From a virus (lineage: Duplodnaviria; Heunggongvirae; Uroviricota; Caudoviricetes): DNA of 64,000 nt. Under the pieces are notes generated by a model. It ran no database searches. It was not told the origin of the DNA and worked only from the letters and a program-made list of their open reading frames with translations. This document shows positions 2,461 through 53,896 of this stretch, piece by piece. Each line of letters starts with the position of its first letter. The first letter of the stretch is position 1. A program made the translations under genes and the position numbers. Where the stretch lies: positions 159,865 through 223,864 of IMG/VR virus record IMGVR_UViG_3300033463_000007; one strand, given 5' to 3'.

Positions 2461-5400
2461 ATGCCAACAAATAAAGAAAACTTTATAAATAAATTAAATA
2501 CCCTAGCTGATGCTGTTAAGACCAAGAGACCACTAGCTGAGGGTACGGATTATACTATTAATAATATTGTTGATGCAATTAGTAGTTGGGAGCTTAGACG
2601 AGCAGAAGAAAGCCCAACAGTTGATTTAGATTTATCTAATGGCAATCAGGTAATTATACCTACTGTAAGTGGTAATGTCTTATCTCAGGTCACTATTCGG
2701 CAACCGGTAGATCAGGAAGGCCATAATATATTTATTTCTGATAATATTAGGTCTGGAATAACTCTTGGAAATGTAACCGGAACTTATACAGCTGTAAATG
2801 AGAATGCTGTAACAGCTGCAGATATAAGATTTAATAAAAAAGCCTTTGTAAATGGTAGCGATGTAATAACTGGTTCCATGTCAGATTATAGTGGAACTAC
2901 TTTAATTGTTCCAACTTTTACAAATGGTACACCCTCACAGTCATCAACATCCCATATAGCTACACAAAATACTTTTGTAACAAGTAATATTAATTATGCA
3001 AATATTTGGTATTCAAATTTAGACCCCACAAAGATTCTTAATGGTGAAACAGTCAATATTGGCACTACTGATGATATTAGTACACCAAAAGTTACTGTTA
3101 CTGGTACTTACACTCCAGCAGTTGAAACTCTAATTCTTGACCAACCAAATGAACCCGGTGGTTTAAAACTTAATTATCAAAATACAGTTGGTTATGATTT
3201 ACCAGTACAAATTTTAACACACAGCCAAGGTAAATTAATAGAACAAGTTATATTATATCGTCCTGAAAATCTTATACCGGAAAATATTAAATATAATATA
3301 CCTATTGCAGGTACTGCTGGTACCTTTACAAGTAGTTCTACTGTTTCCAGTGGACAAATTGCGGCAACAGCTGATAAAATACGTTCTGGTTATTCCGCAT
3401 GGGTAAATGGTACTGAAATACAAGGTTCAATACCTAATAAAAGTGCAGAGGTTTATAATCCAACTATTGCATCGTCAAGTTCCGGCACAGCCACTTTAAA
3501 TCCTATAACAATTAGTTCTGGTCAATACTTAACTGGAAATCAAACGATTACAGCGACAGAGGTAAGAGGGTTAAATCCTGAATATATTGTTTCTGGGCAT
3601 AGCATTCAAATTGGCTATACACAAAATGATACTTTTAGACCAATTCATACAACACAAGGCTCTTACACAGGTATTGCTTCAGAATATATTGAGCCAACAG
3701 CTATAGAGTTTAATGAATTAATTTTCCGCACTACTACAAGTGGAATTACGATAGATTCAGATGTTGTAGTAAATCCAGAACCTGGGCATGCTTTTAGTCA
3801 GGTTAAAATTAAAAGGCCAACTGATATGTCTGCAGTTGCTGCAAAAATTGCTTATAATCAAACTATACACGGTATTTCTGGTACATTTTCTTATGAAGCA
3901 AATAATTCTATAACTGCCAGTTCAATTAGAAATGGCAAAGTTGGTTTTGTTAATGGTAATAAAATTATCGGTACAATGCTTGAGCGTGATGTCGGTAATA
4001 TTGGACTTTCTACTACAGATTATACAATAGCAGCAAATCAATATTTAGCAGGTGCTCAGACAATTTATGGTGCCAGAATAACAACCACGGATACTGGCGG
4101 TACAATAGCTGTTAATGATTTTAATGCTTTAGCCGGATTACTTGTTAAAGATGTAACTTTAGATATTGGTGATACTGGTGATACTGATAGACTTGCTCAT
4201 ATTGTTGGTACATATGATAACCAAAAACCGGAAGAAGTTGGAAATGTAACATTAAATTTCTGAGATTCAACACATTCAACTTATTATGATCAATTAGACA
4301 TTAATCCAAGCACACAAAATACAGTTTTTTCTCATGTTTTAATAAATAAACCAGCGACTTTAATTAAAGGAAATATTGCATCTGGAGTTTCTATCGCTGG
4401 TGTTACAGGTACTTATACAAATGATGCAAATGCAACATCAAGTGACATTTATCCTGGCAAAACTGCTTATGTACAGGGCACTAAAGTTTCTGGCAGCATG
4501 CAAACACGTGCCGCTGCAACAATTTATCCGAGTGCTTCAGACCAAACAATTGCTTCAGGTCGTTATTTAACTGGTACTCAAACAATAAAAGCAACGACTG
4601 TTAAAGCATATGACCCAGTATTACAAGAAACTGTTCCGTTAGATCCTGATTATATTATTAAGGGTGTTGTTGTAAAAGTTGGTGATGAAGTTAATAATGC
4701 TCGTGTTGCTAGTATAACTGGTACTTTCGATTATACTGAATTTATTGAAGGTCCAAGAGAAGTTGATTTATCATTAGCTTCTGGCAATCAAACTATAAAT
4801 CCAGAGGCCACTGGATATTCAATGAGCCAAATAATAATTAAGAAGCCCGTAAATTTATTAGCTAGTAATATTAAAAAAGATGTTGAAATTGCAGGTATTA
4901 CTGGAACATTTGAAGAAATAAAAGTATTAGAAATAGATGCAAATTACAATTCAGCATCAACTATTAATCTCACTACTGCACAAAAGAATGTTTTTACTTC
5001 TTTGGCTTTAGGTAGTACTATTAAATTAAAATTTACACAATCTAATAGTATTAAATATTTTACTAAAACCTATTCAAGCACCTCCGGTAGTGAAACATTT
5101 ATTGTTCTTACTGCACCAATTTCAAATGATTTTGAATGAAGTAATACTAAATATATTAGAACAAAAACTGAATTATGTTATATTGCTATTGCTAATAATA
5201 CAGCAGAATTACATTTGGTATATAAACAAGGCTCGTCTGCTGCTTTATTAGGTGAAATTAGGCCTAATACTGATCTTGTATTAGACCCAAGCACTGAAAC
5301 ACGTATTTATGATTATACAGATGCTACAATAGGTATTCCTACATCATTAACGGTTACAGGTCTTGCTTATACAGCTGTTCAACCAGAGCAGCTTTTACAG

Positions 5401-9345: not shown

Positions 9346-9951
9346 ATGGGTTTTTGTAAGACTTGTTATAAAGAAAAAATAAACCCTCAAGTTAAAGATG
9401 AAGATTTATCATATGAATTAGATGAAGCAATTTGTGAGTGTTGTGGAGAATTAAAGCATTTGGTAAAAATACCAGAAATTAAAGATCCAAACATAATGAC
9501 TGTTGCTGAATGTAATTTAGAAACACAAAAACATATAGAAAATGTTCGTAAATATATTAGATTTATTACAGATAAGTTGACACAGAGAGGTGTAGATCAT
9601 GATGCAAGTAAGATGGAATCACCGGAAGTTGAATTATTTGCACAATATACAAAAAAACTAGCCTCTTTAGTTTATGGTAGTGATGAATATAAAGCAAATT
9701 TAGAAGCTTTACAACCTGCACTAGAACATCATTATGCTACCAACAGACATCACCCAGAGCATTTTCCTAATGGAATAAATGATATGAATTTAATTGATAT
9801 TATTGAAATGTTTTGTGATTGGAAAGCTTCTTCTTTACGACAGAATGATGGAAATTTATTAAAAAGTATTGAGTTAAACACTGAGCGATTTAATATTGAT
9901 CCTCAGCTAAAACAGATTTTTATTAATACTGCTAATTTATTAGATGATTAA
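9346..9951 (+). CDS. Hypothetical protein, H-H...N-R-H-H...DM motif family (paralog of 34561..35124)
   Basis: LEHHYATNRHHPEHF...DMNLIDIIEMFCDWKASS resembles SWNHHYHHNKHHFQFWW...ESVCDMLGASKAY in the paralog; possible metal-dependent hydrolase. Confidence 0.35.
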   Translation: MGFCKTCYKEKINPQVKDEDLSYELDEAICECCGELKHLVKIPEIKDPNIMTVAECNLETQKHIENVRKYIRFITDKLTQRGVDHDASKMESPEVELFAQYTKKLASLVYGSDEYKANLEALQPALEHHYATNRHHPEHFPNGINDMNLIDIIEMFCDWKASSLRQNDGNLLKSIELNTERFNIDPQLKQIFINTANLLDD

Positions 9952-14166: not shown

Positions 14167-14691
14167 ATGAAATTTGTTATAAAAGAAAAAACACCAGCAG
14201 AAAATAAGGCTTTATGTGAAAAATATCCTTTTCTTACTTGGCGTGGAGATCCGTTATATGTTGGAAGTTATTCAAAAGATAGAGAGCCAGATTATAAATA
14301 TACATGGGAAGATGAAATGCCAGATGGCTGGCGAAAAGCTTTTTGTCCACGAATTTGGGATGAGCTTAAAGCTATTCTTGAAAAAGCTGACTTTGTAAAT
14401 GAGTTTGAATTTATGCAAATAAAGGAAAAGTTTGGTACTTTAAGACTCTATTATTGTGGTATACCTGCTGAAATAAGTAAAGAGCTTTCAGATTGGGAAG
14501 ATAAATATGATAAACTTTCTGAACAAACTTGTATTATTTGTGGAGAACCTGCCACACAAATGACTACAGGGTGGATTACATATGTTTGTGATGATTGTGC
14601 AAAAGAAATGGGTGGTAGAACAATTCCAATTAAAGATTTAGATGAGTATTATGATAATCCTAAAAAATACTGAGAAACACATACAAATTAA
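14167..14691 (+). CDS. Hypothetical Cys-rich protein
   Basis: ORF extended through terminal TGA to TAA at 14689. Confidence 0.35.
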
Positions 14692-14700
14692 TATAAAATT

Positions 14701-14717
14701 TATTGTATAATATATTG
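14701..14717 (+). promoter_or_regulatory. Extended -10 promoter (TTGTATAATATA) driving the intron-containing suppressor tRNA
   Basis: TGnTATAAT extended -10 consensus; same motif recurs upstream of >12 genes. Confidence 0.5.
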
Positions 14718-14811
14718 TCGGATAATTAATCCGACTATTGTCCTCCTTTCTATAGAAGTTCATATCGTCGCAGTTATGATTAAATAGTTTGCGCTAGACT
14801 AGCTTCATTTT

Positions 14812-15175
14812 GGAAGAATCGTTAAACGGTATGACCGCGGTCTTTAAAAGTAAATAGTAGCTAACTACTTATGGAGCACTTAATTAGAAATAATTAATGT
14901 GAATGTGGGCTAATTCGGTAAAGGTTAGAGAATGCCGAGCTAAATTGAATAAACAGGTGCTACGAGAACCGGATTAAGATCTTATGAAAGCTTATTAGGC
15001 ATCCTAGAGTGCTGTAGTTAAATGGTGTTAGATGAACAGCCTGTTATTTATAAATGTGTAGAGAACATATACCCACAACCTACGTCTTTATAAGATAAGG
15101 TTAAGACATGTTCCAATAAGATTAAATTCTTATGCAAAACCGCTTTTCTGGGTTCGAATCCTAGTTCTTCCGCCA
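14812..15175 (+). tRNA. Intron-containing suppressor tRNA-Trp(UCA): 5' exon 14812-14844, intron 14845-15134, 3' exon 15135-15172 plus encoded CCA
   Basis: Acceptor GGAAGAA/TTCTTCC perfectly paired across 360 nt; D-arm GTTA-AACGGTA-TGAC; anticodon stem GCGGT/ACCGC; splice positions fixed by U at exon end and G at intron end; spliced loop CUUCAAA (E. coli tRNA-Trp is CUCCAAA); T-arm CTGGG-TTCGAAT-CCTAG; discriminator G73 (Trp identity). Confidence 0.6.
14845..15134 (+). ncRNA. Group I-like intron (290 nt, no ORF) in anticodon loop of tRNA-Trp(UCA), inserted between nt 34 and 35
   Basis: Contains P-like GCTAATTCGGTAAAGG and Q-like AATGCCGAGC and S-like AAGATAAGGTT elements; insertion site identical to cyanobacterial tRNA-Leu(UAA) group I introns. 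Confidence 0.45.
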
Positions 15176-15212
15176 AAAGGAACTTTATTTAATATAAAGT
15201 TCCTTTTTATTT
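15176..15212 (+). terminator. Rho-independent terminator after tRNA
   Basis: AAAGGAACTTTATTTAATATAAAGTTCCTTTTT hairpin plus T-run. Confidence 0.6.
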
Positions 15213-15281
15213 ATCTTATTTTGTTTGCAATATAATTTGCTAAACTAATATGCAAGCAATTATTTAAAGGAGAAATTTATT

Positions 15282-15797
15282 ATGGAAATTTTATATTGTA
15301 AATATTGCGGTAAAGAATGTAAAAATAAAAATAGTTTAGCTCAGCATGAACTTAGATGCTCTTACAATCCAAATAGGCTAAAATATTCTACCTGGAATAA
15401 AGGAAAAACAAAAGAAGTTGATGCACGATTAGTTAGAAAAGTTACAGATGGTTTTAGTAAAGTTGGATGGCGTCATTATCAACAGTATCTTGCAGATAAT
15501 TCTATTGCTTGGGGGCAACAGAATATGCAGTGTTATAAAAAATATTTTTTAGAGGAACAACATCATTGTTGTGCTATTTGTGGCTGCTCCGATTTATGGC
15601 AAGATAAGCTATTAGTGTTTATTCTTGATCATATAGATGGTAATGCTGATAATAATAATCGTGAAAATTTACGTCTAATATGTCCTAACTGTGATTCTCA
15701 GTTAGATACTTTTAAATCTAAGAATAAAAAATCTGCACGAGCAAAACATAGAAATATAAAAGTAGTAACTGAGGAACAATATAAAGAATTATTTTAA
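15282..15797 (+). CDS. HNH homing endonuclease (zinc-finger + HNH)
   Basis: CKYCGKEC zinc finger; HHCCAICG...LDHIDGNADNNNRENLRLICPNCDSQL HNH motif; no TGA. Confidence 0.65.
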   Translation: MEILYCKYCGKECKNKNSLAQHELRCSYNPNRLKYSTWNKGKTKEVDARLVRKVTDGFSKVGWRHYQQYLADNSIAWGQQNMQCYKKYFLEEQHHCCAICGCSDLWQDKLLVFILDHIDGNADNNNRENLRLICPNCDSQLDTFKSKNKKSARAKHRNIKVVTEEQYKELF

Positions 15798-15861: not shown

Positions 15862-16443
15862 ATGGCAAAAGATCCATTAAAAACAGTTGGAGCAAGTAAT
15901 CTTTCTGACAAAGAACGAGCTAAAAATGATTATTATGCTACTGATCCTAAAACAACAAAGGCTTTTTTAGCTACATACCCATTAGATAAGACTAAGCTTA
16001 TCTGGGATCCAGGTAGTGGACATAATTTAATTATTAATGTTTTACAGGAGTATGGTTATAAAACATGGTCAACTGATTTATATAATTATGGTTATCAAGA
16101 TAATATTTTTGATTTTTTAACATATTCAAAAAAATTTGAAGGAATAATTTTTGGAAATCCCCCATATAAATTAGCTAATGAATTTGTAAAACACGCATTA
16201 GAAATAGTTACACCTGGAAGCCAAGTTATTTTTTTATTGCGTACGCTTTTTCTTGAGGGCCAGAAAAGATATAATGACATATTTAAACAAAAAAATTTAA
16301 AATTTGTTTTTGTATTTATAAATCGACAAGTATGTAGTACTAAAGATGATTTTACTGAAGGTAGTGCTATTTCATATAGTTTTTTTGTATTTGAAAAAGG
16401 TTTTATAGGAGAACCCACCATAAAATGGTTAGCTACAAATTAA
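15862..16443 (+). CDS. DNA N6-adenine (or N4-cytosine) methyltransferase
   Basis: IWDPGSGHN (motif I) and IIFGNPPY (motif IV NPPY). Confidence 0.6.
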   Translation: MAKDPLKTVGASNLSDKERAKNDYYATDPKTTKAFLATYPLDKTKLIWDPGSGHNLIINVLQEYGYKTWSTDLYNYGYQDNIFDFLTYSKKFEGIIFGNPPYKLANEFVKHALEIVTPGSQVIFLLRTLFLEGQKRYNDIFKQKNLKFVFVFINRQVCSTKDDFTEGSAISYSFFVFEKGFIGEPTIKWLATN

Positions 16444-16640
16444 AATATAGTGGTTATTGTATTATAAACTATACTACACAACAAATATTTTATGGTAAAA
16501 ACTTTGTAGAATTATCACAAACATCTGGTATTGCTGTTGCAGTAATTCAAAGAAATATAAAATTAAATAGAAAAGTAAAAAATATAGGTTATTATAAGTT
16601 GGATATTAATGGTATGCCAATAATAAAGGAGGTGATTTAA
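16425..16640 (+). CDS. Small hypothetical protein, possible HTH
   Basis: 71-aa ORF overlapping MTase 3' end; ELSQTSGIAVAVIQRNIKLNR helix-turn-helix-like. Confidence 0.25.
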   Translation: MVSYKLKYSGYCIINYTTQQIFYGKNFVELSQTSGIAVAVIQRNIKLNRKVKNIGYYKLDINGMPIIKEVI

Positions 16641-17141: not shown

Positions 17142-18131
17142 ATGCAAAGAATGTTATCAGGAATAAAACCTACCGGAACTCCTACTTTAGGAACTTATTT
17201 AGGTGCAATTTTACCCTTTATAAGATACCAAAATGAATATGAGCTATTTATTTTTATTGCAGATTTACATGCCTTAACAACTTGTCAAAATGCTAAAGAA
17301 TTAAGAGATAATATTAATTTATTAGCTAAGATTTATCTAGCTGCTGGATTAGATTGTGGACAAAATAAAACTGTATTATTTAAGCAATCTGATGTATTAC
17401 AACATAGTCAGTTAAATTGGATTTTAAGTAATTATACACTAATGAGTGATCTTGAAATGATGACTCAATATAAACAAAAATGTCAGCAACTTGCAGCTAG
17501 ACAAGGAGTTAATGTATCTTTATTTACTTATCCTGTTTTAATGGCTGCAGATATTTTACTTTATAATACAGATTTAGTGCCTTGTGGTCAAGATCAAAAA
17601 CAACATATAGAATTAACACACGAGCTTGCCCGAAAATTTAACTCTATGTATGGTGAAACTTTTAAACTACCAAAGCCATATATAACCAAAACCGGCGCTA
17701 AAATAATGAGTTTATCTGACCCGACTAAAAAAATGAGTAAATCAGAGTCAGATAAAGGAACAATTTATTTAACTGATACTAAGGAAGTTATTTTTAATAA
17801 ATTTAAAAAAGCTGTCACTGATAGTGAAGGAAAAATTTATTATAATCCAGAAACTAAGCCTGGAATAAGCAATTTACTTACTATTTATGCTGCAATAAAA
17901 GATATTTCTATTCAAGAAGCTGAAAATATATTTAAAGATGAAAAAGATTACGGTAAATTTAAAAATGAAGTAGCTCAGATAGTTTGGCAATATTTAGATA
18001 CATTACAGTATAATATAAAACAAATTTCTGATAAACAAATATTTTTAACATTAGATGATGGTCAAAAACAGGCAGCTAAAATTGCATCAGAAACTCTATC
18101 CAAAGTATACAAAAAGGTGGGATTAAGATAA
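17142..18131 (+). CDS. trpS: Tryptophanyl-tRNA synthetase
   Basis: Class I aaRS: N-terminal MLSGIKPTGTPTLGTYLGAI, KMSKS motif KKMSKSESDKG; 329 aa; no TGA codons. Confidence 0.85.
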   Translation: MQRMLSGIKPTGTPTLGTYLGAILPFIRYQNEYELFIFIADLHALTTCQNAKELRDNINLLAKIYLAAGLDCGQNKTVLFKQSDVLQHSQLNWILSNYTLMSDLEMMTQYKQKCQQLAARQGVNVSLFTYPVLMAADILLYNTDLVPCGQDQKQHIELTHELARKFNSMYGETFKLPKPYITKTGAKIMSLSDPTKKMSKSESDKGTIYLTDTKEVIFNKFKKAVTDSEGKIYYNPETKPGISNLLTIYAAIKDISIQEAENIFKDEKDYGKFKNEVAQIVWQYLDTLQYNIKQISDKQIFLTLDDGQKQAAKIASETLSKVYKKVGLR

Positions 18132-18134
18132 AAT

Positions 18135-19196
18135 ATGTTTGATAGGCTTGAAAGTATATTAAATAAATATGATGAGCTTTCAATGAAATTAAGTTCTTCA
18201 GAAATTATTTCAAGTAATTTATATCAGCAATATAGTAAAGAGTTAGCAGATATTCAAGAAATTGTTGATACTTATTCTGCTTATAAAGACGCACAGGATT
18301 ATTTAGAACTACTTAAAGAAGATGAAGCTAAAAATACTGATTTGGAATTAAAAGTACTATATAATAGTGAAATTAAAGAAACTCAAAGTAAATTATCAGA
18401 GCTAGAAAATAATTTAAAATTATTATTATTGCCAGCTAACAAGGATGATTCCAAAAATATTATTATGGAAATTCGTGCAGGAGTTGGCGGAGATGAAGCA
18501 GCTATTTTTGCAGCAGATCTTTTTAATATGTATTTAAAATATACACAAAAACAAGGTTGGAATGTTTCAGTTAGTAGCTATACTGAAGGTGTTCTAGGTG
18601 GTTTTAAGGAAATTATCTTAAGTATTTCTGGTAAAAACGTTTATCAAAAATTAAAATATGAAGGTGGAGTACATCGGGTACAACGAGTACCAGAAACTGA
18701 GGCTAGAGGCAGAATTCATACATCAACAGCAACAGTTGCAGTACTTCCAGAAAGAACAGAAACAGAAGTTATAATTGATCCAAAAGATATTACTATTGGT
18801 TTATTTCATTCCGGTGGGGCTGGTGGTCAAAATGTAAACAAAGTTGAAACAGGTGTACGTATAACACATATTCCTACCGGAATGGTAGTTGCTTGTCAAG
18901 AAGAGCGGTCACAGCTACAAAACAAAGAACGTGCTTTTGAAATATTGCGCGCAAAGTTATGGGATTATTATAATACTCAAAATATTAATTCTGAAATAAA
19001 CCAACGAAATAGTATGATTGGTACTGGTGATAGATCAGAAAAAATTCGAACTTATAATTTTCCGCAGCATCGTATAACCGACCATAGAATTAATTATACT
19101 ACTTATAATATAGAAGAAGTATTACAAGGTAATTTAGATGATTTAATTGAACATTTACAAATTGCAGAAAATGCAAAATTGTTAATTAATCAATAA
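18135..19196 (+). CDS. prfA: Peptide chain release factor 1
   Basis: GGQ motif (SGGAGGQNVNKVETGVRITHIPTG), PxT-type tripeptide region RVPETEARGRIHTSTATVAVLPE, C-terminal HRINYT; 353 aa; no TGA codons. Confidence 0.85.
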   Translation: MFDRLESILNKYDELSMKLSSSEIISSNLYQQYSKELADIQEIVDTYSAYKDAQDYLELLKEDEAKNTDLELKVLYNSEIKETQSKLSELENNLKLLLLPANKDDSKNIIMEIRAGVGGDEAAIFAADLFNMYLKYTQKQGWNVSVSSYTEGVLGGFKEIILSISGKNVYQKLKYEGGVHRVQRVPETEARGRIHTSTATVAVLPERTETEVIIDPKDITIGLFHSGGAGGQNVNKVETGVRITHIPTGMVVACQEERSQLQNKERAFEILRAKLWDYYNTQNINSEINQRNSMIGTGDRSEKIRTYNFPQHRITDHRINYTTYNIEEVLQGNLDDLIEHLQIAENAKLLINQ

Positions 19197-19232
19197 GATT
19201 AAAAGAGCCTGTTTTAGCCAGGCTCTTTTTTA
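19197..19232 (+). terminator. Rho-independent terminator after prfA
   Basis: AAAAGAGCCTGTTTTAGCCAGGCTCTTTTTTAT hairpin, followed by TTTGCTAAATTATATAG motif. Confidence 0.6.
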
Positions 19233-19269
19233 TTTGCTAAATTATATAGTAAATATGGAGGATTTTATT

Positions 19270-20127
19270 ATGTTAAAATTTAAAGTACCAAAGCAACAAG
19301 ATTTAGATTTAGATCAGTTGATTTTTGATAGAATTACTTTTGGCAATACACAACCATCACCAAAAGATGATCGAGATTATATTGCGCAAGCTAAAGATTG
19401 ATCTAAAATAAAATTTCCAAAAGAATATAGAGCACCAAAAACAGAAGTTTTAAATCAAGAAAATTATGGGTCTTGCGTAGCTCATTCTTGCGCCACCGCT
19501 TTAGCCCAAGGAGAACAACTTATTTCAAATACCCACAATAATTATTCTCGCGGTTATATTTATGGTAATAGAAAATCAACTGACTTGCAAACTGAGGGTA
19601 TGATTGTTAGGCAGGCATTAAAGCAACTACATAATTGTGGAGATGTTCTATATGATGATTTTCCATATAATAAAACTTATCCTATGGTAAAAGCTTTAAT
19701 TGATATTGATAGAGAATATTTAGCAAATAAAGCAAAGCAGTATACTATTTTTGATTTTTATAGGTGTTGTGATGAAAATCAGTTAAAAGATGCTATTATA
19801 TCCTCCGGTGCAGTTATAATTGTAGTTCCTGTTTATAGTGATTTTGCCCGTGATTTACATAAAACTCAATCATGGGAACTCCGAGGCTATCATGCAATGG
19901 CTTTAGTTGGTTGAACTGCTGATAAATGAATTGTACAGAATTCTTGAGGCTTAGAATGGGGTTATGATGGTTGTTTATTAATGGATATGGATTATCCCAT
20001 AATTGAAAGCTGAGGCATAACCGTTAATAAGGAACTTAAAAAGTCACTTTGATATAGAATAAAAACAATTTTTAAACAATTTTGAAATTGAATTAAATAT
20101 ATCTGAAATAAAATATTTAAAAAATAA
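19270..20127 (+). CDS. Papain-like (C1) cysteine peptidase, paralog of 135..1187
   Basis: NYGSCVAHSCATALAQ Cys motif, GYHAMALVG-W-TADK-W-IVQNS-W-GLE-W-GYDG with W=TGA; ORF continuous only under TGA=Trp. Confidence 0.6.
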
Positions 20128-20216
20128 TTTGCTAAATTAATTAGTAATGCAGTAACTGTAAAAAATCTATTATTAGCTGCATTAGTTTAATAATTAGAGG
20201 AGAGATTTAGAAATAA

Positions 20217-20663
20217 ATGGATACTTGATTAGTAACTATAATTTCATTAATCGGGAGCACTGCATTATCAACAATAGTTGGCTTAATTATAAAAAACAGC
20301 GTCTCTAAAAAAATGGATGAACAAAAAGAATTACTTGAACTTCGTGAATCTAAAGGGCATCAAGAGCGTAAGCAAGAAATGACAGAAATTATAAAAGCTG
20401 AGTTATTACCCGTTACACAGCAGCTTGATTCATTATCAGAAGCAATAAAAAAGAATAATGCCGGTACTGTTACATTATTAAGAGAGAGCTTAAAGCAATC
20501 CAGAGATCATTTAATGGAAAAAGGAGTTGCCACTGCCTCTGAAGTTGCAAGTTGACATGAACTATATAATACTTATGCAAAGCTAGGCGGAAATAATTTT
20601 AAAGATTATGTTGATGCTTGAAAAGATGATGTAGATGGGCTACCAAGAGAAAAAAGTAAATAA
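20217..20663 (+). CDS. N-terminal transmembrane protein with charged coiled C-terminus (holin-like / lysis accessory)
   Basis: MDT-W-LVTIISLIGSTALSTIVGLII TM segment; three TGA=W; preceded by TTTGCTAAATTAATTAG motif. Confidence 0.35.
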
Positions 20664-20692
20664 AATTTTTAAATATGGTAAAGGAGTAATGT

Positions 20693-21073
20693 ATGGAAAA
20701 ATTTAGTTTAATTTGTGATTTAGTTATTGCTATTATTGGGGTAATTCCAACAATTATTTCATTAATTTATTTAGTTAGAAATATTATAAAAAATAAAAAT
20801 TGGAATATGATCATGAAAATGGCAATGGAAGCAATGACTGCTGTAGAAGCTTATGCTATTGCTAATCCTAACATGACATCTGAGGATAAACTTAATATGG
20901 CATTAGAGGCTATCAAGAAAGCCTGTGGATCTGCTGGAATTACAGTAGATGATATTCTTATTAAACAAATTATTGATTATATTTCTGAAATGTGCAGCTG
21001 GGCAAAAACTGTTAATACAAATGTAGAAGTAGTTGAAGTTAAAACTGTTATGCTTGCAGCAAAAACAAAGTAA
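20693..21073 (+). CDS. Holin-like protein (LL-H type architecture)
   Basis: N-terminal TM LICDLVIAIIGVIPTIISLIYLV followed by amphipathic helices. Confidence 0.4.
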   Translation: MEKFSLICDLVIAIIGVIPTIISLIYLVRNIIKNKNWNMIMKMAMEAMTAVEAYAIANPNMTSEDKLNMALEAIKKACGSAGITVDDILIKQIIDYISEMCSWAKTVNTNVEVVEVKTVMLAAKTK

Positions 21074-21095
21074 TTTAACAGGAGGATTTATTTAA

Positions 21096-21461
21096 GTGTT
21101 TTATATTGCAGATAATGGAATTATTAAGCTGCATGCTGGTGATTCTGGAAATTTTCATTTTCAAATCAATATTGGTTCCACAATAAATCCTCAACCTTAT
21201 GCATTACAAGCAAATGATAAAATTTATTTTTCAGTAATGGAACCAAACCAGCCTTTTGAGCTTGGTGTTTTAAGAAAAATTTTAACAGTTGATGATTTAA
21301 TTGATGAAACAACAATTAATATTCAATTTATAACAGAAGACACTGAAAGGTTAATTCCTGGAATTTATTATTATGAAATGAAATTAGTGCTTATAGATAA
21401 TGAAGAAAATACTCATTATTACACTATTTGCCCAAAAACTAAATTTTATATTCTTGATTAA
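21096..21461 (+). CDS. Hypothetical protein
   Basis: ORF with RBS AGGAGGA. Confidence 0.3.
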   Translation: MFYIADNGIIKLHAGDSGNFHFQINIGSTINPQPYALQANDKIYFSVMEPNQPFELGVLRKILTVDDLIDETTINIQFITEDTERLIPGIYYYEMKLVLIDNEENTHYYTICPKTKFYILD

Positions 21462-21529
21462 AAATAGTTTATTTAAAAATTAATAGCCCTCTCCACTTTA
21501 GGGGGCTTTTTTATTCGGAGAGATACTTT

Positions 21530-23023
21530 ATGAAGAAGACAGATAATTATCAACAAAATATAGATGAAAATAGTGATAAAAATTTTGAATCAATTGGGTA
21601 TGATGAACCAATTGATTTATTATATAGTGAATTAGTTGCCTCTAAGGAAACACCAGAACAAGTAATTATTTATACTGATTTTACACGTAGAACAGAATTA
21701 CCTACTGAAAATGATAAATATGTTAAATCATATATTCGTGAAGCTGATGGCGGATGAAATTTAGCTATTAAAGGTAAGCCTACTCATGAATTATGCACTG
21801 TATTAAGTAATTGTGTAGGCTGAGCCGCTGGTAGATATAATGAAATTTATGATGAAATTAAAAATATCACAGGTCATCATTATCCTTATTTAGTTTGTAA
21901 TGCAGAGGATTTTCCAGTTCGAGCCAAAAAATCATATCCTGATATTATAATGGATCAAACTCCTGAACCTGGCGCAATAATGGTCTGAGAAGGTATTGGT
22001 AGTCTCGCAGGACATGTTGCTATTGTAGAAGAAGTGATAGATAATAATACTGTATATACTTCTGAATCAGGTTATGGTAGTACTATTCCAATGAGATACC
22101 AAAAAAGAGTTAATGATAATGGTTGTTGAGGCATGAACACAACAAATTATAAATTTACTTGCTTTATGCACAATCCAGCAGTTGAAAAAACTATTATTAA
22201 TATAGTGCAACCAGTTGAAAGAGATGTACTAATAGATCAATTATATATTGATACACCTAATTATTCATATATTAGAATGGATCATAGTACAGCTTCTAAA
22301 GCCATAGGGCAGTTTAAACAGGGATATTTTAATTATACCGATAGTTTTATTGGCGATGATTATGTTTGATATAAGCTTGCTGAAAATCAATGAGTTGCTA
22401 AAACAGGCCATATCCAAGTATATCCTAAAGTAAATCCAAGTATAGAAAAAATTGAATTGAATGAAGACTATACTAATACATATTATGCAGGTGATTTTTT
22501 ACAGTTTAAAATGATAGGTTTAAATTGCAAAGAATATTGAAATACCGGGGAAGTAAAAGATGTTGTTTATAATAATTATAAAATAATACCAGCAAATGGC
22601 ACAGCTTTAACTGTTAATGATACAAAAATTATTATTAATTTTGAAAATAATTTAACTCTTGAATTACCTCTTGAGATAAAAGTTAAGGTTGAGCCAAAAG
22701 TTGTAAAAATACAGCTTTCTGGCACGTATAAAACTGAATATTGAGAAGGCGAAAAACTTGATTTAACTGGTCTTATTGTTGAAGCAGTTTATGATAATGG
22801 TGAAATTACTTCATCTATACCTTATATTGCTTCACCACAGGCAAATAGTTTGTTACCATTTATGGGGACTCAAAACGTTGTAATTGCTGCTTATCTTGAC
22901 AACAAAGGATTTTCAACTTCTTTTAAAATAAATGTAAAACATAAACAAACTGCAGCCGAAAAATTCAGTCAAATGATACAAGCACTAGCTAACTTTATTA
23001 GAAGTTTATTTAATAAAAAGTAA
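21530..23023 (+). CDS. CHAP-domain peptidoglycan hydrolase with C-terminal Ig-like repeats (lysin / tail-associated lysin)
   Basis: CTVLSNCVG-W-AAGRY (Cys) and GAIMV-W-EGIGSLAGHVAIVEEV (His) CHAP motifs; many TGA=W; C-terminal KVVKIQLSGTYKTEY-W-EGEKLDLTGLIVEAVYDNG Big-like domain. Confidence 0.6.
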
Positions 23024-35322: not shown

Positions 35323-37539
35323 ATGCGCACTCTCTTACTTTTAAGAGGTGCTCCTTAGCCAGGAGCAGGTAAGTCAACTTGGATACAGCAACACAATTTA
35401 CATGATTATACTATTTGTCCTGATGAGTTACGAGTTCTTTGTGCCTCAAAAGAGCTTATGGCTAACGGTGAGTATACAATTACTCAAGAAAGAAATAATG
35501 AAAATAAAGTATGGTCTTTATTATTTGATATTCTTGAATATAGAATGTCAAGAGGTGAATTTACTGTTATAGATGCTACTTGTTCTAAAACAAGAGATAT
35601 TCAACAGTATAAGGATCTTGCAGATCATTATAGATATAGAGTATATATTGTAGATTTTACAAAAGTGCCTCTTGAAACTTGTTTAGCACAAAATAAGCAG
35701 CGTCATCCCGATAAGTGGGTTCCGGATGATGCAATTAAAAATATTTATGCTAGATTTGCTACCCAGCCTATTCCTAAAGGTGTGTCTGTAATTCAGCCTG
35801 ATGAATTTGATACAATTTTAGAAACTCCTTTTGATGTATCTAACTATAGAAAATTAGTATTCATTGGAGATATTCATGGTTGTTATGATACTTTAATGCA
35901 GTATCCTGATTTCAAAGATGGATTAAAAGATGATACAGAATATATTTTTATTGGAGACTATATTGATAGGGGCAATCAAAATTATGAAGTCTTAAAGTTT
36001 CTTGGCGAAATAAAAGACCTTCCTAATGTTTGCTTACTTGTAGGAAATCATGAAAATCATATTCAAGATTTTGGAGACGGTATTACTGCAAAATCTAGGG
36101 AGTTTGAAGAAAAAACTAAAGTAGAGCTTCAGACAAAGGGATATACAGAAAAAGAAGCTAGAATGTTTTATAGAAAACTTAGACAGTTTTCTCACATCAC
36201 TTGGAATAGTTTTGAAATTCTAGCTTGTCACGGGGGAATTCCTAATCTTACAAAAAATCTACTCTATGTACCTTCTGAAAAACTTATTAAAGGATCAGGG
36301 TCTTATAGTGATTATTTAACGGTTACTGCTTCTTGGATGGCCCAGACAAATAGTAATCAATATTTAATTCATGGTCATAGAAATACTGAAGGTAGTGAAA
36401 CACAGATTGCTGATCGAGTTTTTAATCTTGAAGGCAAAGTAGAATTTGGTGGGCAGCTAAGAATTGTTGAATTAGATAAAGATGGTTTTCATACTATTGA
36501 GCTTGATGATTGTCAGCCAATTACTGAAGATCTTAATACCGAAACTCGACCGGTAGAGACAGTTGAAGACGCCATTTCTTATCTTAGAAATAATAAGTTT
36601 ATTCAAGAAAAGAAATTAAATGAACAAATATCTTCATTTAATTTTACCCGTGATGCTTTTTATAAAGGAAATTGGAATAGACAAACAATTCTAGCTCGTG
36701 GATTATTTATTGATACTGAAGCTAAAAAGATTATGGCTAGATCATACGAAAAATTCTTTAAAATTGGTGAAGTAAATTCTACTGAATTAGCTGTTTTAAA
36801 AAGTAAATTACAGTTTCCTGTAAGTGCATATGTTAAAGAAAACGGTTTTTTAGCTATTGTATCTTATGATTATAGAAATGATGATTTATTCATTGCATCT
36901 AAATCGACTAATCAAGGAGACTATGTTGAATATATCAAGACTGCTATCGAACCGTATAAAATAAATTTATTTAATTATTTAAAATATGCTAATGAAAATG
37001 GCAATAATATCTCTATGGTATTTGAATGTGAAGATCCTGAGCATGACCCACACATTATTAAATATAATAAGCTTAGAGTAGTTTTATTAGATATAATTTC
37101 TAACCAACTTGATTTTTTTGCTTGGCCTTATGAGCTAACTAAAAAAGTTGCAGAAGAAGTAATTTATTGTCCTGTAAAAGAAAAAGCATATGAATTTAAA
37201 GATTGGGACTCTTTTAGGGAATTTTATTCTGAAATCCAAGAAGATGATTATCAGTATAATGGAAAATATGTAGAAGGATTTGTATTTGTAGATTCTAACG
37301 GATTTCAAACAAAGTGTAAGACTCCTTATTATAATCAATGGAAAAAACTTAGAGGTGTTGCAGACCAGACTCTAAGACAGGGTTATATAGTAAAAACAGG
37401 AATGTTAATTAATTCTTTAGAAAATCTTTTTTATGGTTTTTGTAAAGATTTATATAAAACTTATAGAGATCCTGAAACAAAAACTTATCCATTTAAAACT
37501 GATATTATATCTTTAAGAGAAAGGTTTTTAGTTAATTAA
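35323..37539 (+). CDS. Polynucleotide kinase-phosphatase-ligase (Pnkp-like RNA repair enzyme) with in-frame TAG at codon 12 (35356-35358)
   Basis: P-loop LLRGAP-TAG-PGAGKSTW; metallophosphoesterase GDIHG...GDYIDRG...GNHE; C-terminal nucleotidyltransferase/ligase VKENGFLAIVSY (KxNG motif I); ORF 35458..37539 is the same frame. Confidence 0.5.
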
Positions 37540-45493: not shown

Positions 45494-45791
45494 GTTTTTT
45501 AATTTAATATTTGGTTAATTTTAAAATATTGCAACTAAAATATTTTGATAGGTGATTATAAAAAAATAATTTTAATTAGGCCTAATAATTATCATTTATA
45601 CTCATTGAAGTTTTCTGAAAAGATCAGTGAAGTTGCTACCTCTCGATATATAGGTGAAAGAAATCGGACCGCTATAAGGTGGGGTGCGGTTTAGACCCCT
45701 AAAGACAGCCGTCATTGAATGGTGATCACCCTATTCCATTCATTTTTTTATCTACTGCTGGTGTGGCTCAATGGCAGAGCAGCTGATTTGT

Positions 45792-46369
45792 AAAATAAAT
45801 TGCAACCTTGTAAGGAAACTTATAAGTGAAAATCTCGCTAATTCGGGGAAACCTACAATGAGTAGAATCTATCTTAATTGTGGTAGAAAAATTACCGGAC
45901 GAGGGCTTAAGTATTGTAACAATGTTTGCCAGAAAGAATATGAATATAAATCATATATTGAAAGATGGAAACAAGGTTTAGAAACTGGGCTTCGTGGGGA
46001 GTATCAAATATCTGATTTTATTAAAAGATATTTGTTTGAAACTCGTGGTAAGAAATGTGAACTGTGTGGTTGGGATAAAGTAAATCCTTTAACAAAAAAT
46101 GTTCCTGTAGAAATCCATCATATAGATGGAGATTACAAGAATAATTCAGAAGAAAATTTACAAATTTTATGTCCAAACTGCCATTCACTTACAAATACCT
46201 ACAAAAACTCTAATACTAATAATGGTAGAAAAGAGAGAAATAAATACTCGTCATGACAATCCCGAGCTAGGTTAATACCGAGTGTAGAGACTTTACACGA
46301 GAAACCTAAACCTATATAGGCATGGTTAAGAGAAAGTCCAGACTACAATGTGAAAACGATGTAGCACTG
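45792..46369 (+). ncRNA. Group I intron (td-like, subgroup IA) in tRNA-Thr anticodon loop
   Basis: P element CTAATTCGGGGAAACC (45836-45851), Q element GACAATCCCGAGCTA (46262-46276, near-identical to T4 td intron GACAATCCCGTGCTA), R element GTCCAGACTACAATG (46336-46350). Confidence 0.55.
45858..46256 (+). CDS. Intron-encoded HNH homing endonuclease
   Basis: MSRIYLNCGRK zinc finger; CELCG...VEIHHIDGDYKNNSEENLQILCPNCHSL HNH motif; ORF track extension to 45771 overlaps the tRNA 5' exon and is probably not translated. Confidence 0.6.
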   Translation: MSRIYLNCGRKITGRGLKYCNNVCQKEYEYKSYIERWKQGLETGLRGEYQISDFIKRYLFETRGKKCELCGWDKVNPLTKNVPVEIHHIDGDYKNNSEENLQILCPNCHSLTNTYKNSNTNNGRKERNKYSS

Positions 46370-46422
46370 AATCAGCAGGTTGATGGTTCGACTCCGTTCA
46401 CCAGCTCCAATAAATTATAAGA

Positions 46423-47080: not shown

Positions 47081-47285
47081 TTTTTATAAAAGTTACAGTA
47101 AAATTATTAGCTAAATTAAAAGAATAAAATAGCTAAGATAGAAAAAATAGCACAACCAAAGAAATTTGGTGTCGCAAAGCTAAAGGGCCCTTTCCGGGCA
47201 GCCAGTTGCTTCTAGGAGACATTACTCATGGAAGCTTTTATTTTATTTATATTTTATTAAAAATTTATATAAAGGGGAAAAATTT

Positions 47286-47927
47286 ATGAAATTAAGAAAC
47301 ACATTAGCACTTATTATGGTAGCAGCTATGCTTTGCTTTGTTGGTGTTGGCTTTGCAGCATGAACATTTATGAATATTGAAGATGCTGAAGTTAGTACAA
47401 TTCAGGATAAAGTTGCTGTCGGTATTGAATTAAATAATGGTTTTAAACTCTATAATGCAGCAGATGATGCTGAAATTACCGCACTTTATCTTATTTGTGA
47501 TGCTCCTGCTGGTGAAACAGATATTCTTAATGGCCAGGGTGTTTATTGGTCAACTTCTGCAACAGGTAAAGATGGTTCTGGTAATAAGTTAGCTGTTACT
47601 AATGTATATATTAAAGGTACATTAGCAAAAGCTGATGAAGACGGTGTCTGGGATAAAGCTACTGTTGATGTTGCATTTACAGCCGACTATACTGATTTAA
47701 GTTCAACTTATATTACTTTTGGTGTAGCTCCAACTATTGCTAATACTACTGGTATTACTGTTGCAAATAATGCAGTAGTTCAAAGTGCATCTTTTGTATT
47801 ACCTTCAGTTGCATATGTTGCAGCAAATCTTCCTCACAGTATTTCAGAGTTAACAGATATGAATACTGCCCTTGGAACAGACTTAAGCGGTACTGCTTTA
47901 AGATTTACAGCTCAAATTGTTGCTTAA
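47286..47927 (+). CDS. Secreted protein with signal peptide
   Basis: MKLRNTLALIMVAAMLCFVGVGFAA-W signal peptide; TGA=W joins to ORF 47370..47927. Confidence 0.4.
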
Positions 47928-49775: not shown

Positions 49776-50181
49776 GGGGGTGTAAAGGTTTCGACAGGGT
49801 TAAGAAAGTGATAGTATACGCAGGAGTTATTCACCTTACGAATCGGTAATTTAAAATAAACGACAATACAATTGTTACTTTTAGTCCTTTCTTAATTAAT
49901 GCACTCTCTTCTATGAGGGCTGCTGCTTAAGATATTATAGGCGCCAAAACAATACGCTGGTGATCAAGCAAGTATTTGAGGTCAAAGAACGGGTCACATA
50001 AAGTTGTCCAACTTTAAAATGGACTGGTGGAGACGGATAAAACCGGCGCAACTCATTTAATATATTGAATTTGCTTATTTTACATTATATTAAATTATTT
50101 TATTAAATAAGCTAGTGCGTAAGTATTATACTATTTTAGTATTAATTTTGGACAGGGGTTCGATTCCCCTCACTTCCACCA
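49776..50181 (+). ncRNA. ssrA: tmRNA (ssrA) with long tag ending -AAA
   Basis: 5' GGGGGTGTAAAGGTTTCGACAGGG (cf. E. coli GGGGCUGAUUCUGGAUUCGACGGG), 3' GGACAGGGGTTCGATTCCCCTCACTTCCACCA; acceptor with G3:U70; tag ORF ...GAC AAT ACA ATT GTT ACT TTT AGT CCT TTC TTA ATT AAT GCA CTC TCT TCT ATG AGG GCT GCT GCT TAA = (N)DNTIVTFSPFLINALSSMRAAA. Confidence 0.75.
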
Positions 50182-50185
50182 ATGT

Positions 50186-50261
50186 CTGGGTGTAATTCAG
50201 TTGGTAGAATGCGTGATTTGGGATCACGATGCCGGATGTTCAAGTCATCTCACTCAGACCA
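50186..50261 (+). tRNA. tRNA-Pro(UGG)
   Basis: CTGGGTG-TA-ATTC-AGTTGGTA-GAAT-G-CGTGA-TTTGGGA-TCACG-ATGCC-GGATG-TTCAAGT-CATCT-CACTCAG-A-CCA. Confidence 0.7.
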
Positions 50262-51198: not shown

Positions 51199-51240
51199 AA
51201 AAGACCCCAGAATTCTGAGGTCTTTTTATTGTATAATATA
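51199..51240 (+). promoter_or_regulatory. Terminator-promoter cassette upstream of polA
   Basis: AAAGACCCCAGAATTCTGAGGTCTTT hairpin then TTATTGTATAATATA. Confidence 0.5.
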
Positions 51241-51267
51241 AAGAATAAATTTATAGTAGAGGTTGTT

Positions 51268-53037: not shown

Positions 53038-53101
53038 TTTTTTATCTTGACCGGTAAAATCAGTGCTAAATTAATTAGATTAATATTTTGGAGGTTTAAT
53101 T

Positions 53102-53896
53102 ATGGCATATGGTTTTATTTATAAAATAATAACTACAGCTTCTAATAAAGTTTATATTGGACAAACAACTAGAACTATTGAAGAACGTTACCAAGAGCAT
53201 TTGAAAGCAAGAAATAGTAAAGATAAAAATACTTTACATTTATATCTTGCTATGAATAGGTATGGCGTTGATACTTTTAGTGTTGAAAAAATTGATGAAG
53301 CTAATACACAAGAAGAACTAAATCAAAAAGAAATATATTGAATTAATTTTTATGATTCAATGAATAATGGATATAATATGGCACCTGGTGGTAGCATAAA
53401 TATTTTTGAATCTGAAAAAGTTAGAAAAAAACATGCAGCAAGCATGCGTGATCCAAAAACACGAGAAAAAATTTCTAAAACAATGCATGAGCTTAGAACT
53501 ACTTTTGGCTTTTCTGAGGAACATAAAAAAAAGATACGTGAATCAAGTCGAAAGCGAAAAGAAGAACGGGCAAAGTTAGGTTTAAAATATTATGATGATT
53601 GTTCACATTGTGCAACTAGATCAAAAGCAGTTTATTGTATATTAGATACCGGTGAAAAATTTGAATTTGATTCTATTTTACACGCTGGTAAATGATGATA
53701 TGAAACATACAAACCCTTTGGTGAAACTTATTCTACTGCTACCTATCAAAGAAAAATTGAAGCCTCTATTGCGGGTAAAGAAATTATTTTCCAATCCGGA
53801 CATGACAGTAGAAGTCAAGGTAAAAAAAATATTATTATTAAAATAACTAATATAAAATGATTTTATAAAGATAATTGAAATGGAGGTGATGCCTAA
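53102..53896 (+). CDS. GIY-YIG homing endonuclease inserted within polA (intron-encoded)
   Basis: GFIYKIITTASNKVYIGQTTRTIEERYQEHL GIY-YIG motif; ORFs 53102..53341 and 53360..53695 same frame joined by TGA; preceded by GTGCTAAATTAATTAG motif and RBS GGAGG. Confidence 0.7.

Follow-up and report, generated by a model that had tools for sequence, protein, structure and literature searches.

A candidate self-splicing group I intron in the opal suppressor tRNA gene of a recoded Jade-type phage

Group I introns in the anticodon loops of bacterial transfer RNA (tRNA) genes are well known, including those between nucleotides 34 and 35 of tRNA-Leu (PMC13011429, PMC3984707); most of them belong to class IC, and those at 35/36, mostly from Patescibacteria, to class IA (PMC13011429). 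In phages, group I introns have been described in protein genes, as in td, nrdB and sunY of T4 and in Twort, Bastille-type, crAss-like and Jug phages (PMC3984707, PMC7886860, PMC12363816), and a 2014 review noted that all phage introns then known lay in protein-coding genes despite the many phage tRNA genes (PMC3984707). The 'code change module' of Jade phages consists of a suppressor tRNA, a tryptophanyl-tRNA synthetase (TrpRS) and release factor 1 (RF1) upstream of the lysis cassette (Borges et al., preprint 10.1101/2021.08.26.457843), and theta ribozymes, which are hepatitis delta virus (HDV)-like, adjoin phage tRNAs, of which one in five is a suppressor (PMC10879173). A suppressor tRNA has been found in only 35-40% of stop-codon-recoded phage genomes, and non-canonical, undetected tRNAs are suspected (preprint 10.1101/2021.08.26.457843; PMC7886860; PMC12386605). 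Here we describe a stretch of 64,000 nucleotides (the window; positions 159,865 to 223,864 of IMG/VR record IMGVR_UViG_3300033463_000007) from a phage genome of ~232 kb, in which a Trp-type tRNA gene is split in its anticodon loop by a group I-like insert. We consider it quite probable that this is the working opal suppressor tRNA gene of a large Jade-type phage that reads TGA as Trp, and that it carries, between U34 and C35, a self-splicing group I intron that is selfish and tolerated. The genetic-code switch of the phage appears to rest on this split gene, which is laid out as follows:

14812-14844, + strand: tRNA exon 1, GGAAGAA TC GTTA AACGGTA TGAC C GCGGT CTT (acceptor 5' strand, D arm, anticodon-stem 5' strand, C32 U33 U34).
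14845-15134, + strand: insert between the exons, 290 nucleotides, no open reading frame (ORF), starting UAAAAG and ending with the omega-G at 15134.
15135-15175, + strand: tRNA exon 2, CAAA ACCGC TTTT CTGGG TTCGAAT CCTAG TTCTTCC G CCA (C35 A36 A37 A38, anticodon-stem 3' strand, variable loop, T arm, acceptor 3' strand, G73, encoded CCA).

The joined exons form a clean cloverleaf of 74 nucleotides with the anticodon UCA (ARAGORN on the spliced sequence), in agreement with the preliminary description of this DNA, which had read the two tRNA halves 290 nucleotides apart. The split gene was detected neither by ARAGORN in its default mode nor by Rfam at gathering thresholds. The intron mode of ARAGORN recovered it, but with the splice 2 bases off, and called it Ala(UGC) with a mismatched stem. 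A tRNA-Ala(UGC) with a 288-nucleotide intron was rejected, since it needs a shifted, mismatched anticodon stem and conflicts with the intron-less alleles.

These alleles are found in relatives of the phage. L002 and L003 carry an uninterrupted 74-nucleotide tRNA(UCA) at the corresponding, syntenic intergenic position (57.4 bits on RF00005 for the intact L002 tRNA), and L001 and L004, from two further samples, have the tRNA split at the same site by a 198-nucleotide version of the insert. The L002 tRNA is identical to exon 1 plus exon 2 of L001, and the sole insertion placement fitting both is ...GGTCTT^CAAAACC..., that is, between nucleotides 34 and 35. Because the L001 exons equal the intact L002 tRNA, the junction is fixed without any splicing rule, an independent confirmation of the unique splice point that had earlier been deduced from a terminal exon U and a terminal intron G. 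That the site is the one used in tRNA-Leu(UAA), as had also been proposed, is upheld by the allele comparison, by the published site (PMC13011429) and by homology to phage tRNA-Leu(UAA) introns. Between the split alleles of the window and L001, four stem pairs differ by compensated substitutions and none of the changes is disruptive; the split gene hence continues to be constrained as a tRNA. In L037, a separate assembly made from run SRR10393135, 11.6 kb that contain the split gene match the window at 100% identity, and L037 may come from the source sample of the window.

No second tRNA(UCA) was found in the 64-kb window, even with the intron-aware mode of ARAGORN. The earlier claim that splicing is required to make the UGA-decoding tRNA thus stands within the window; for the ~232-kb genome it is conditional on there being no intact copy in the other ~170 kb. 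Searches of IMG/VR with the exact exon 1 and of GenBank phages with 14700-15300 (blastn) returned zero matches.

The insert folds into a P3-P4-P5-P6-P7-P8 core with a P3/P7 pseudoknot, in which all helices could be located, together with P1, P2 and P9:

14842-14876, + strand: P1 stem-loop, CUU/UA (14842-14846, splice site marked by the slash) with the UGGAG guide (14872-14876) and an extension hairpin between (predicted, RNAfold).
14877-14901, + strand: P2 hairpin, 10 base pairs, one bulged U, GAAA tetraloop at 14887-14890 (RNAfold).
14904-14909 / 15072-15077, + strand: P3, UGUGGG with CCCACA.
14914-14920 / 14933-14939, + strand: P4, enclosing J4/5 AA and a very short P5.
14923-14932, + strand: P5, GGUUAGAGAA, ~3 base pairs.
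14946-15050, + strand: P6 with an extension of ~100 nucleotides peculiar to this phage; base 14946-14950 with 15046-15050.
15063-15068 / 15108-15113, + strand: P7, GAACAU with AUGUUC, in pseudoknot with P3.
15079-15100, + strand: P8 hairpin, outer CC...GG, inner GUCU/AGAU, receptor-like internal loop CCUACG / UAAGG.
15116-15133, + strand: P9 hairpin, AUAAGA / UCUUAU, followed by omega-G 15134 (RNAfold).

In the predicted P1, the last base of exon 1, U34 (14844), pairs with G14874 and gives a U-G wobble at the 5' splice site. The GAG guide triplet beside P2 is conserved in phage tRNA-Leu introns and in L053, an independent intron in an anticodon arm with UCA. At its 3' end the insert closes with omega-G 15134, a boundary set by the intron-less alleles, and P7 should hold the guanosine-binding site. 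Homologues keep the GAAA loop of P2 on differing stems, with compensatory changes in L011 and L014 and one compensated pair distinguishing L039 from the window. Many of them have CCUAAG...UAUGG at the P8 loop, which we take to be the canonical 11-nucleotide GAAA receptor. A short P5 is also present in L053 (GGUUGAGGAAC). The base of P6 is in register with a helix in which 5/5 pairs covary; L001 and L004 have CAGA-GAAA-UCUG in place of the entire extension, and the length difference between their introns and that of the window is confined to it, which fits the peripheral variation expected there. No similar copy of the extension was found elsewhere and no Rfam family matched it. The core as a whole (AAUUCGG, GCCGAGC, GUGUAGAGACUA, AUAGUCC) presumably resembles that of the Azoarcus intron.

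Homologues were collected by two patterns. A 21-nucleotide pattern of the P7 region yielded four IMG/VR phage contigs (L011-L014) with homologous introns of 227-229 nucleotides splitting tRNA-Leu(UAA) genes, and a P3-P4 pattern yielded 19 loci in metagenome-assembled genomes (MAGs) of the GTDB genome collection, labelled Patescibacteria, Gammaproteobacteria, Bacteroidales and Bacilli; the intron mode of ARAGORN called a split tRNA gene in 16 of these 19. The P7 pattern gave nothing in the GTDB collection, as expected because the MAG introns carry GACUAU and not GAACAU, and a P7'-P9 21-mer gave nothing in IMG/VR. The core alignment comprises 21 distinct sequences, with 18 of the 19 MAG loci entered. 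Across it, 91% of the cells of the hand-drawn P3-P8 structure are paired, versus 31-47% when the 3' partners are slid; changes on both sides occur in 19 of 34 core pairs, and the covariation score is 0.388 as against at most 0.087 in the slid controls. Conservation in P3-P4 or P7 is partly by construction, as the patterns fix these segments; this way of collecting leaves untouched the covariation seen in P5, P6 and P8, as well as the P7 pair switch. At P3, pair 7/200 is CG in 11, GC in 6 and UA in 3 sequences. All P4 cells are paired and its two inner pairs covary. P7 cells are likewise 100% paired in the 21 sequences, with GAACAU/AUGUUC in four phage-clade introns versus GACUAU/AUAGUC in the MAG introns, a difference of two compensated pairs (CG to AU and UA to CG); L053, which lies outside the core alignment, has by eye G and C at the first of the two switched positions.

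A family covariance model of the intron core (R1), built from 19 homologues with the window and L001 left out, matches 14899-15117 at 94 bits (E 5e-18; E-values of this home-built model are rough). Together with the P3-P8 covariation in the 21 sequences, this bears out the group I nature first proposed for the insert. The search with RF00028 that had been suggested as a check gave a full-length match, but at 17.7 bits (E 0.044 in a 600-nucleotide search) against a gathering score of 50. Being general, RF00028 performs poorly on a minimal, AT-rich subfamily such as this; two of the homologous phage tRNA-Leu(UAA) introns reach 37.5 bits (E 2.7e-6) and 31.6 bits (E 1.6e-4) on it. From its sequence and predicted fold we take the insert to be a genuine group I intron. 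Two other kinds of intron were rejected. Archaeal and eukaryotic bulge-helix-bulge tRNA introns are short, usually at 37/38 and removed by a protein endonuclease, whereas the insert is 290 nucleotides long, at 34/35, with a group I core. Group II introns have a six-domain structure with domain V and usually a reverse-transcriptase ORF; the insert is only 290 nucleotides long without an ORF, and no Rfam group II match was found in 14700-15300 at E up to 10.

The identity of the tRNA and the meaning of TGA could be read from relatives. The spliced anticodon loop is CUUCAAA with G73 on a tRNA-Trp-like body, and a closely similar sequence is the tRNA-Trp(CCA) of L005 and L036, with the loop CUCCAAA. 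In an alignment of eight related tRNAs, all from relatives (six UCA, two tRNA-Trp CCA), C34U is the sole difference between the suppressor loops and the phage tRNA-Trp(CCA) loop, and most suppressors keep G73; compensatory changes are seen in 16 of 21 cloverleaf pairs, and the exons of the window pair at every position. The gene thus reads as a tRNA-Trp paralogue that became an opal suppressor through C34U, as its UCA anticodon, its G73 and a loop one transition away from that of E. coli tRNA-Trp had already been taken to mean; its near-identity to a tRNA-Trp(CCA) of a related phage agrees with this.

Several codon observations point to TGA being Trp in this phage. TGA occupies the Trp position of the NSWG and GW motifs in two papain-like peptidases. 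In the window, the gene at 14167-14691, just 5' of the tRNA, has six conserved Trp sites, each written TGG; orthologues of this gene use TGA at four to six of them (L001 69-593, L002 7011-7529, L003 1527-2042). These TGG/TGA differences show that the recoding of a single gene turns over fast among close relatives. When TGA is recoded, stop-to-stop ORF coverage rises from 0.80 to 0.93, by itself weak evidence because TAA recoding gives a similar rise. The motifs and the orthologous TGG/TGA sites, together with the phage's own TrpRS and RF1 near the tRNA, sustain the proposed read-through of TGA as Trp; from the adjacent TrpRS and the codon evidence, the tRNA would be charged with Trp and would decode UGA. 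A reading of UGA as Gly (code 25) was rejected, since TGA falls on invariant Trp positions. Selenocysteine was dropped for the same reason, the 'SeC' label given by ARAGORN reflecting only the UCA anticodon. A more distant relative (L007, neighbour protein 41% identical) has an amber suppressor tRNA(CUA) at 9410-9485, and the reassigned stop codon may vary within the wider phage group.

The split gene lies in a compact locus whose other elements are:

14703-14712, + strand: promoter-like motif TTGTATAATA of extended -10 type, upstream of the tRNA, conserved in all four close relatives.
14713-14811, + strand: structured leader of ~100 nucleotides, with a hairpin at 14717-14735 and the invariant CCTCCTTTCT (four-relative alignment, consensus fold).
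15175-15207, + strand: intrinsic-terminator-like hairpin, 14 base pairs and a T-run, beginning at the last CCA base.
15282-15797, + strand: free-standing HNH homing-endonuclease gene, 107 nucleotides 3' of the tRNA (PHROG HNH endonuclease, E 2e-18; Pfam HNH_3, weak).
17142-18131, + strand: TrpRS (PF00579, E 1e-71; NCBIfam trpS equivalog, 324 bits, cut-off 177), no in-frame TGA.
18135-19196, + strand: RF1 (Pfam PCRF and RF-1; NCBIfam prfA equivalog, 472 bits, cut-off 400), no in-frame TGA.
19186-23023, + strand: TGA-rich late and lysis genes, downstream of RF1.
19186-20127, + strand: papain-like peptidase frame, 9 in-frame TGA (L001/L002 orthologues called Peptidase_C1).
21443-23023, + strand: CHAP-domain protein frame, 9 TGA and no TGG (L001/L002 orthologues called CHAP).

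The order on the + strand is TTGTATAATA, leader, split tRNA, terminator, HNH gene, three small ORFs, TrpRS, RF1, and the peptidase, holin-region and CHAP genes. RF1 reads UAA and UAG, not UGA. In-frame TGA is absent from other genes, those for TrpRS and RF1 among them. All features of the Jade code change module are present: a suppressor tRNA, TrpRS and RF1 written in the standard code, and a recoded lysis cassette downstream. JS_HF2_S141_scaffold_159238 (L035), named as the Jade representative (preprint 10.1101/2021.08.26.457843), is a relative, with a TrpRS 55% identical, a similar order of module genes and an intact tRNA(UCA). A bacterial origin of the window, for which the presence of a transfer-messenger RNA (tmRNA) and a riboswitch might speak, was rejected on gene content and synteny, which match Jade-type phages.

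The motif TTGTATAATA occurs in 8 copies, all on the + strand of the window, versus 1.2 expected (9270, 10009, 14703, 15823, 44580, 49734, 51229 and 56601). By position most copies lie between listed ORFs, that at 51229 is at the start of the DNA polymerase ORF, and that at 49734 is just ahead of the tmRNA. TTGTATAATA is probably a class of phage promoter, with the suppressor tRNA and the tmRNA among the genes that it drives. The leader has counterparts in L001 (612-716), L002 (7554-7658) and L003 (2061-2165), and its consensus fold contains 4 compensatory pairs and a covarying hairpin; it matched no Rfam family, and would presumably be removed by RNase P. The invariant CCTCCTTTCT within it resembles an anti-Shine-Dalgarno sequence. 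Terminator hairpins equivalent to that of the window follow the tRNA in L001-L003. Between the tRNA and TrpRS, a 71-amino-acid ORF (16425-16640, + strand) is 98% identical to the C-terminal 66 residues of an intact 323-amino-acid GIY-YIG endonuclease of L001 and L002, and is what remains of a homing endonuclease recently lost from this phage. Homing-endonuclease elements have a hotspot in the interval between the tRNA and TrpRS.

The distribution of the intron was followed in these relatives. TrpRS homologues 80% identical are found on three metagenomic contigs (L001-L003) with the same gene order as the window. Among the module-bearing loci, the tRNA is split in three (the window, with L037; L001; L004) and intact in five (L002, L003, L034, L035 and L036), therefore pointing to a recent, dispensable acquisition in one sub-lineage. 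The intron is most likely a mobile, selfish and tolerated element and not a built-in regulator. Neither a TrpRS query nor an upstream-protein alignment query retrieved relatives from IMG/VR, where the clade of this phage seems to be absent.

The L001 intron of 198 nucleotides is 98% identical to that of the window, and 71-77% of its positions are identical to phage tRNA-Leu(UAA) introns (L011-L014 and L039, with L011 at 77%); the guide sequence and P2 of L039 are nearly those of the window. The intron probably came from a phage tRNA-Leu(UAA) intron of this kind. In both target genes ...CUU precedes the splice site and AAA follows within a short distance. With C at -1, the parental tRNA-Trp(CCA) would lose the U-G wobble, and the C34U change that made the suppressor would also have created a usable ...CUU site for a tRNA-Leu intron. 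The HNH gene at 15282-15797 is present in this phage only, being missing from L001-L003, and its product is 38% identical both to the HNH ORF in the tRNA-Thr intron of the window and to that in a Bacteroidales MAG tRNA-Leu(UAA) intron. The HNH gene might serve in homing of the tRNA intron, but nothing supports such a role, given that L001 and L004 have the intron and lack the gene.

Beyond these relatives, 20 IMG/VR loci have a core of this intron family (L011-L014, L038-L052 and L053, on contigs of 5-252 kb, most of 40-250 kb). The intron mode of ARAGORN places about a dozen of them in split tRNA genes, mainly of tRNA-Leu (called UAA, UAG or CAA), some with introns of 790-810 nucleotides; the 'Lys' call of L039 is tRNA-Leu(UAA) by hand, and the other non-Leu ones (Lys, Phe, Ser) are the calls of ARAGORN alone. 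Introns in tRNA genes seem to be widespread in large phages. At L053 (IMGVR_UViG_3300045988_180133, 3900-4183, - strand) a complete tRNA-Trp(CCA) body has an extra anticodon arm, GUGGU-CUU / 186-nucleotide intron / CAAA-ACCAU plus 7 nucleotides, placed just ahead of the CCA arm. When spliced it could fold as a tRNA(UCA), with the old CCA arm as a long variable arm. Its intron has the guide sequence ACUACUUAUGGAGC and the short P5 in common with that of the window, and L053 is a second lineage with a UCA anticodon arm split at the same site.

The complete covarying core, the terminal exon U and the omega-G make guanosine-initiated self-splicing the most economical reading. The two-step mechanism and the rules on the U-G wobble and omega-G are established (PMC3984707). 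In the pathway that we propose, TTGTATAATA would drive a transcript of ~500 nucleotides comprising the leader, exon 1, the intron, exon 2 with its CCA and the terminator. The intron would fold into its P1-P9 core, with C32-U33-U34 paired to the guide GAG and the U-G wobble at the 5' splice site, while the anticodon stem would keep the two exons together; dependence of a tRNA-Leu intron on anticodon-stem pairing was reportedly observed by Zaug et al. in 1993 (cited in PMC3984707). Free guanosine or GTP would attack after U34, and the freed exon 1 would then attack after omega-G 15134, giving the joined loop CUUCAAA. RNase P would cut off the leader. The phage TrpRS would charge the tRNA with Trp, and the tRNA would read UGA in the late and lysis genes, leaving UAA and UAG to the phage RF1, which spares UGA. 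The intron would be tolerated because it splices, not for any regulation.

Several points weigh against this account. Its window covers 64 kb of the ~232-kb genome, and a second intact tRNA(UCA) elsewhere is possible. P5 is shrunk to about 3 base pairs and may be too short to suffice, P1 and P10 are short, and the receptor-like motif in P8 departs from CCUAAG/UAUGG at two positions. The RF00028 score of the insert is far under the gathering score. The selfish, non-regulatory character is drawn from presence and absence among relatives, so that a role could have been acquired secondarily, and the tRNA-Leu(UAA) origin is drawn from similarity. Part of these observations would suit a disabled gene, that is, a copy inactivated by an intron with minimal P5 and altered receptor, UGA being read by another tRNA(UCA) or by a host tRNA; the weak RF00028 score, the very short P5, the ~170 kb of genome beyond the window and the large tRNA arrays in relatives agree with it. 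We hold it very unlikely, however, in view of the perfect cloverleaf of the exons and the compensated substitutions between split alleles, the intact core helices with 94 bits on the family model, the short P5 of the independent UCA-arm intron L053, the counterparts of promoter-like motif, leader and terminator hairpin in relatives and the lack of any other tRNA(UCA) in the window, intron-aware mode included. The minimal P1, P5 and P10, the HNH gene 107 nucleotides downstream and a kinase/phosphatase-RNA ligase fusion of 693 amino acids at 35458-37539 could also speak for removal of the insert by proteins, either through a maturase-like activity of HNH or through cleavage and rejoining by the ligase fusion. 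This is highly improbable: the covarying core is complete with the terminal exon U and intron G that self-splicing requires, the HNH gene does not accompany the intron in L001 and L004, and related tRNA introns self-splice in vitro (PMC13011429). An assembly chimera or a chance pairing of unrelated tRNA-like halves deserves practically no credence and is already refuted by the identical sequence in the separate assembly, by two other samples in which this intron occupies this site, by the E-value of 5e-18 for the intron core and by the exact match of exon 1 plus exon 2 to intron-less alleles.

The alternative of most biological consequence is a code switch gated by the ribozyme, in which slow or conditional splicing, governed by GTP, Mg2+, a phage protein or the P6 extension, would set the time of UGA reading and of the lysis genes. 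The code change module that contains the split tRNA does stand immediately ahead of TGA-rich lysis genes, the intron has been kept in three samples, the ~100-nucleotide P6 extension is unique to this phage, allosteric group I introns are known in bacteria (PMC13011429), and a part in code switching has already been suggested for ribozymes beside suppressor tRNAs of phages (PMC10879173). However, five related loci are intron-less, one of them with a tRNA identical to the exons of a split allele; the P6 extension has no counterpart in the other split alleles or in any Rfam family; no domain for sensing a ligand was found; and the same intron family occurs in ordinary tRNA-Leu and tRNA-Thr genes where there is no switch. 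We judge such gating unlikely. The earlier suggestion that splicing couples late and lytic translation found no support; the five intron-less loci, the published Jade representative among them, point to a tolerated mobile element. A wider proposal, that a ribozyme checkpoint times UGA reading and lysis and that intron-split suppressors are common in recoded phages and explain part of the missing suppressors, strikes us as rather unlikely. A working suppressor gene with a self-splicing, tolerated intron is thus the reading that we retain.

The window holds further elements that bear on introns and on translation:

45757-46409, + strand: second split tRNA gene, tRNA-Thr(UGU), exon 1 45757-45791 and exon 2 46370-46409, with a 578-nucleotide intron at 36/37.
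47139-47213, + strand: cyclic di-GMP-I (c-di-GMP-I) riboswitch aptamer, 49.5 bits, above gathering, upstream of ORF 47370-47927.
49776-50261, + strand (including tRNA-Pro): tmRNA, Rfam 85.5 bits, tag peptide ending ...SSMRAAA; tRNA-Pro(UGG) 5 nucleotides later.
51229-53037 and 53933-55066, + strand: DNA polymerase in two pieces, with a GIY-YIG ORF between.
53084-53896, + strand: GIY-YIG endonuclease ORF, 5 in-frame TGA and no TGG.
35458-37539, + strand: polynucleotide kinase/phosphatase-RNA ligase fusion, PHROG RNA ligase E 2e-174, tRNA-repair type.

The intron core of the tRNA-Thr(UGU) gene scores 39 bits on the family model (E 4e-6) and has an HNH ORF (~45859-46256) within its P5 loop; this split gene also went undetected by ARAGORN in default mode. 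The ORF behind the riboswitch had no PHROG match. The tmRNA is notable in a phage that rewires termination. The DNA polymerase gene is probably interrupted by an intron or a homing-endonuclease insertion in an early gene, its endonuclease being readable only after the code switch; an early-gene insertion of this kind has been described for Agate phages (Borges preprint 10.1101/2021.08.26.457843). L034 and L035, both Jade relatives, also encode the kinase/phosphatase-RNA ligase fusion.

Judging by the 64-kb window, the TGA-containing genes would need a ribozyme reaction for their expression, and the splice junction offers a simple experimental handle on the code switch. The default finders missed this suppressor because a group I intron splits its gene; the locus is a concrete example of a suppressor hidden from ARAGORN default mode and Rfam gathering thresholds, and annotation pipelines for recoded phages should include a search for split tRNAs. 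The known scope of phage introns is also widened, with at least two split tRNA genes in one window and about a dozen further IMG/VR phage contigs in which introns of the same family split tRNA genes.

Compared with described systems, the intron is closest in structure to those of tRNA-Leu(UAA), with which it shares the insertion at 34/35 after a ...CUU 5' exon, the short P1, the P2 with a GAAA loop, P3-P9 without P5abc and the usual lack of an ORF; it also shares the P3-P4 and P7 core sequence with the MAG tRNA introns. It differs from tRNA-Leu(UAA) introns in that its host gene is not tRNA-Leu(UAA) but a Trp-type opal suppressor, in the near absence of P5, in two compensated P7 changes and in its unique P6 extension, and from bacterial and plastid tRNA-Leu introns in that it resides in a phage genome. 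Known phage introns are likewise self-splicing, often accompanied by HNH or GIY-YIG homing endonucleases and patchy among close relatives, but they split protein-coding genes, whereas this one splits a tRNA. In GenBank phages, no match to a tRNA-Leu intron or to the core consensus was shown to be a tRNA intron, the matches being the DNA polymerase of Pseudoalteromonas phage pYD6-A, a weak one in an unannotated 735-kb uncultured phage record and the primase-gene intron of IAS virus. Full-text literature searches, in which few subscription journals were covered, turned up no group I intron described from a phage tRNA, nor one from a suppressor tRNA of any kind. With the Jade module the locus shares the gene set and order, the module being written in the standard code ahead of TGA-rich lysis genes. 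The tRNA(UCA) of the Jade representative L035 is intact and was found by ARAGORN in default mode, whereas that of the window is split and was missed by ARAGORN default mode and Rfam gathering; the Jade preprint used tRNAscan-SE (10.1101/2021.08.26.457843), and the misses reported here concern ARAGORN and Rfam. The closest concept in the literature is the theta ribozyme beside phage suppressor tRNAs; there too, in recoded gut phages, a self-processing RNA is physically linked to the way in which a suppressor tRNA matures. Theta ribozymes are small and self-cleaving, with their site beside the tRNA and a proposed role in 3'-end processing (PMC10879173), whereas the group I intron of the window lies inside the anticodon loop and would need both excision and rejoining of the exons.

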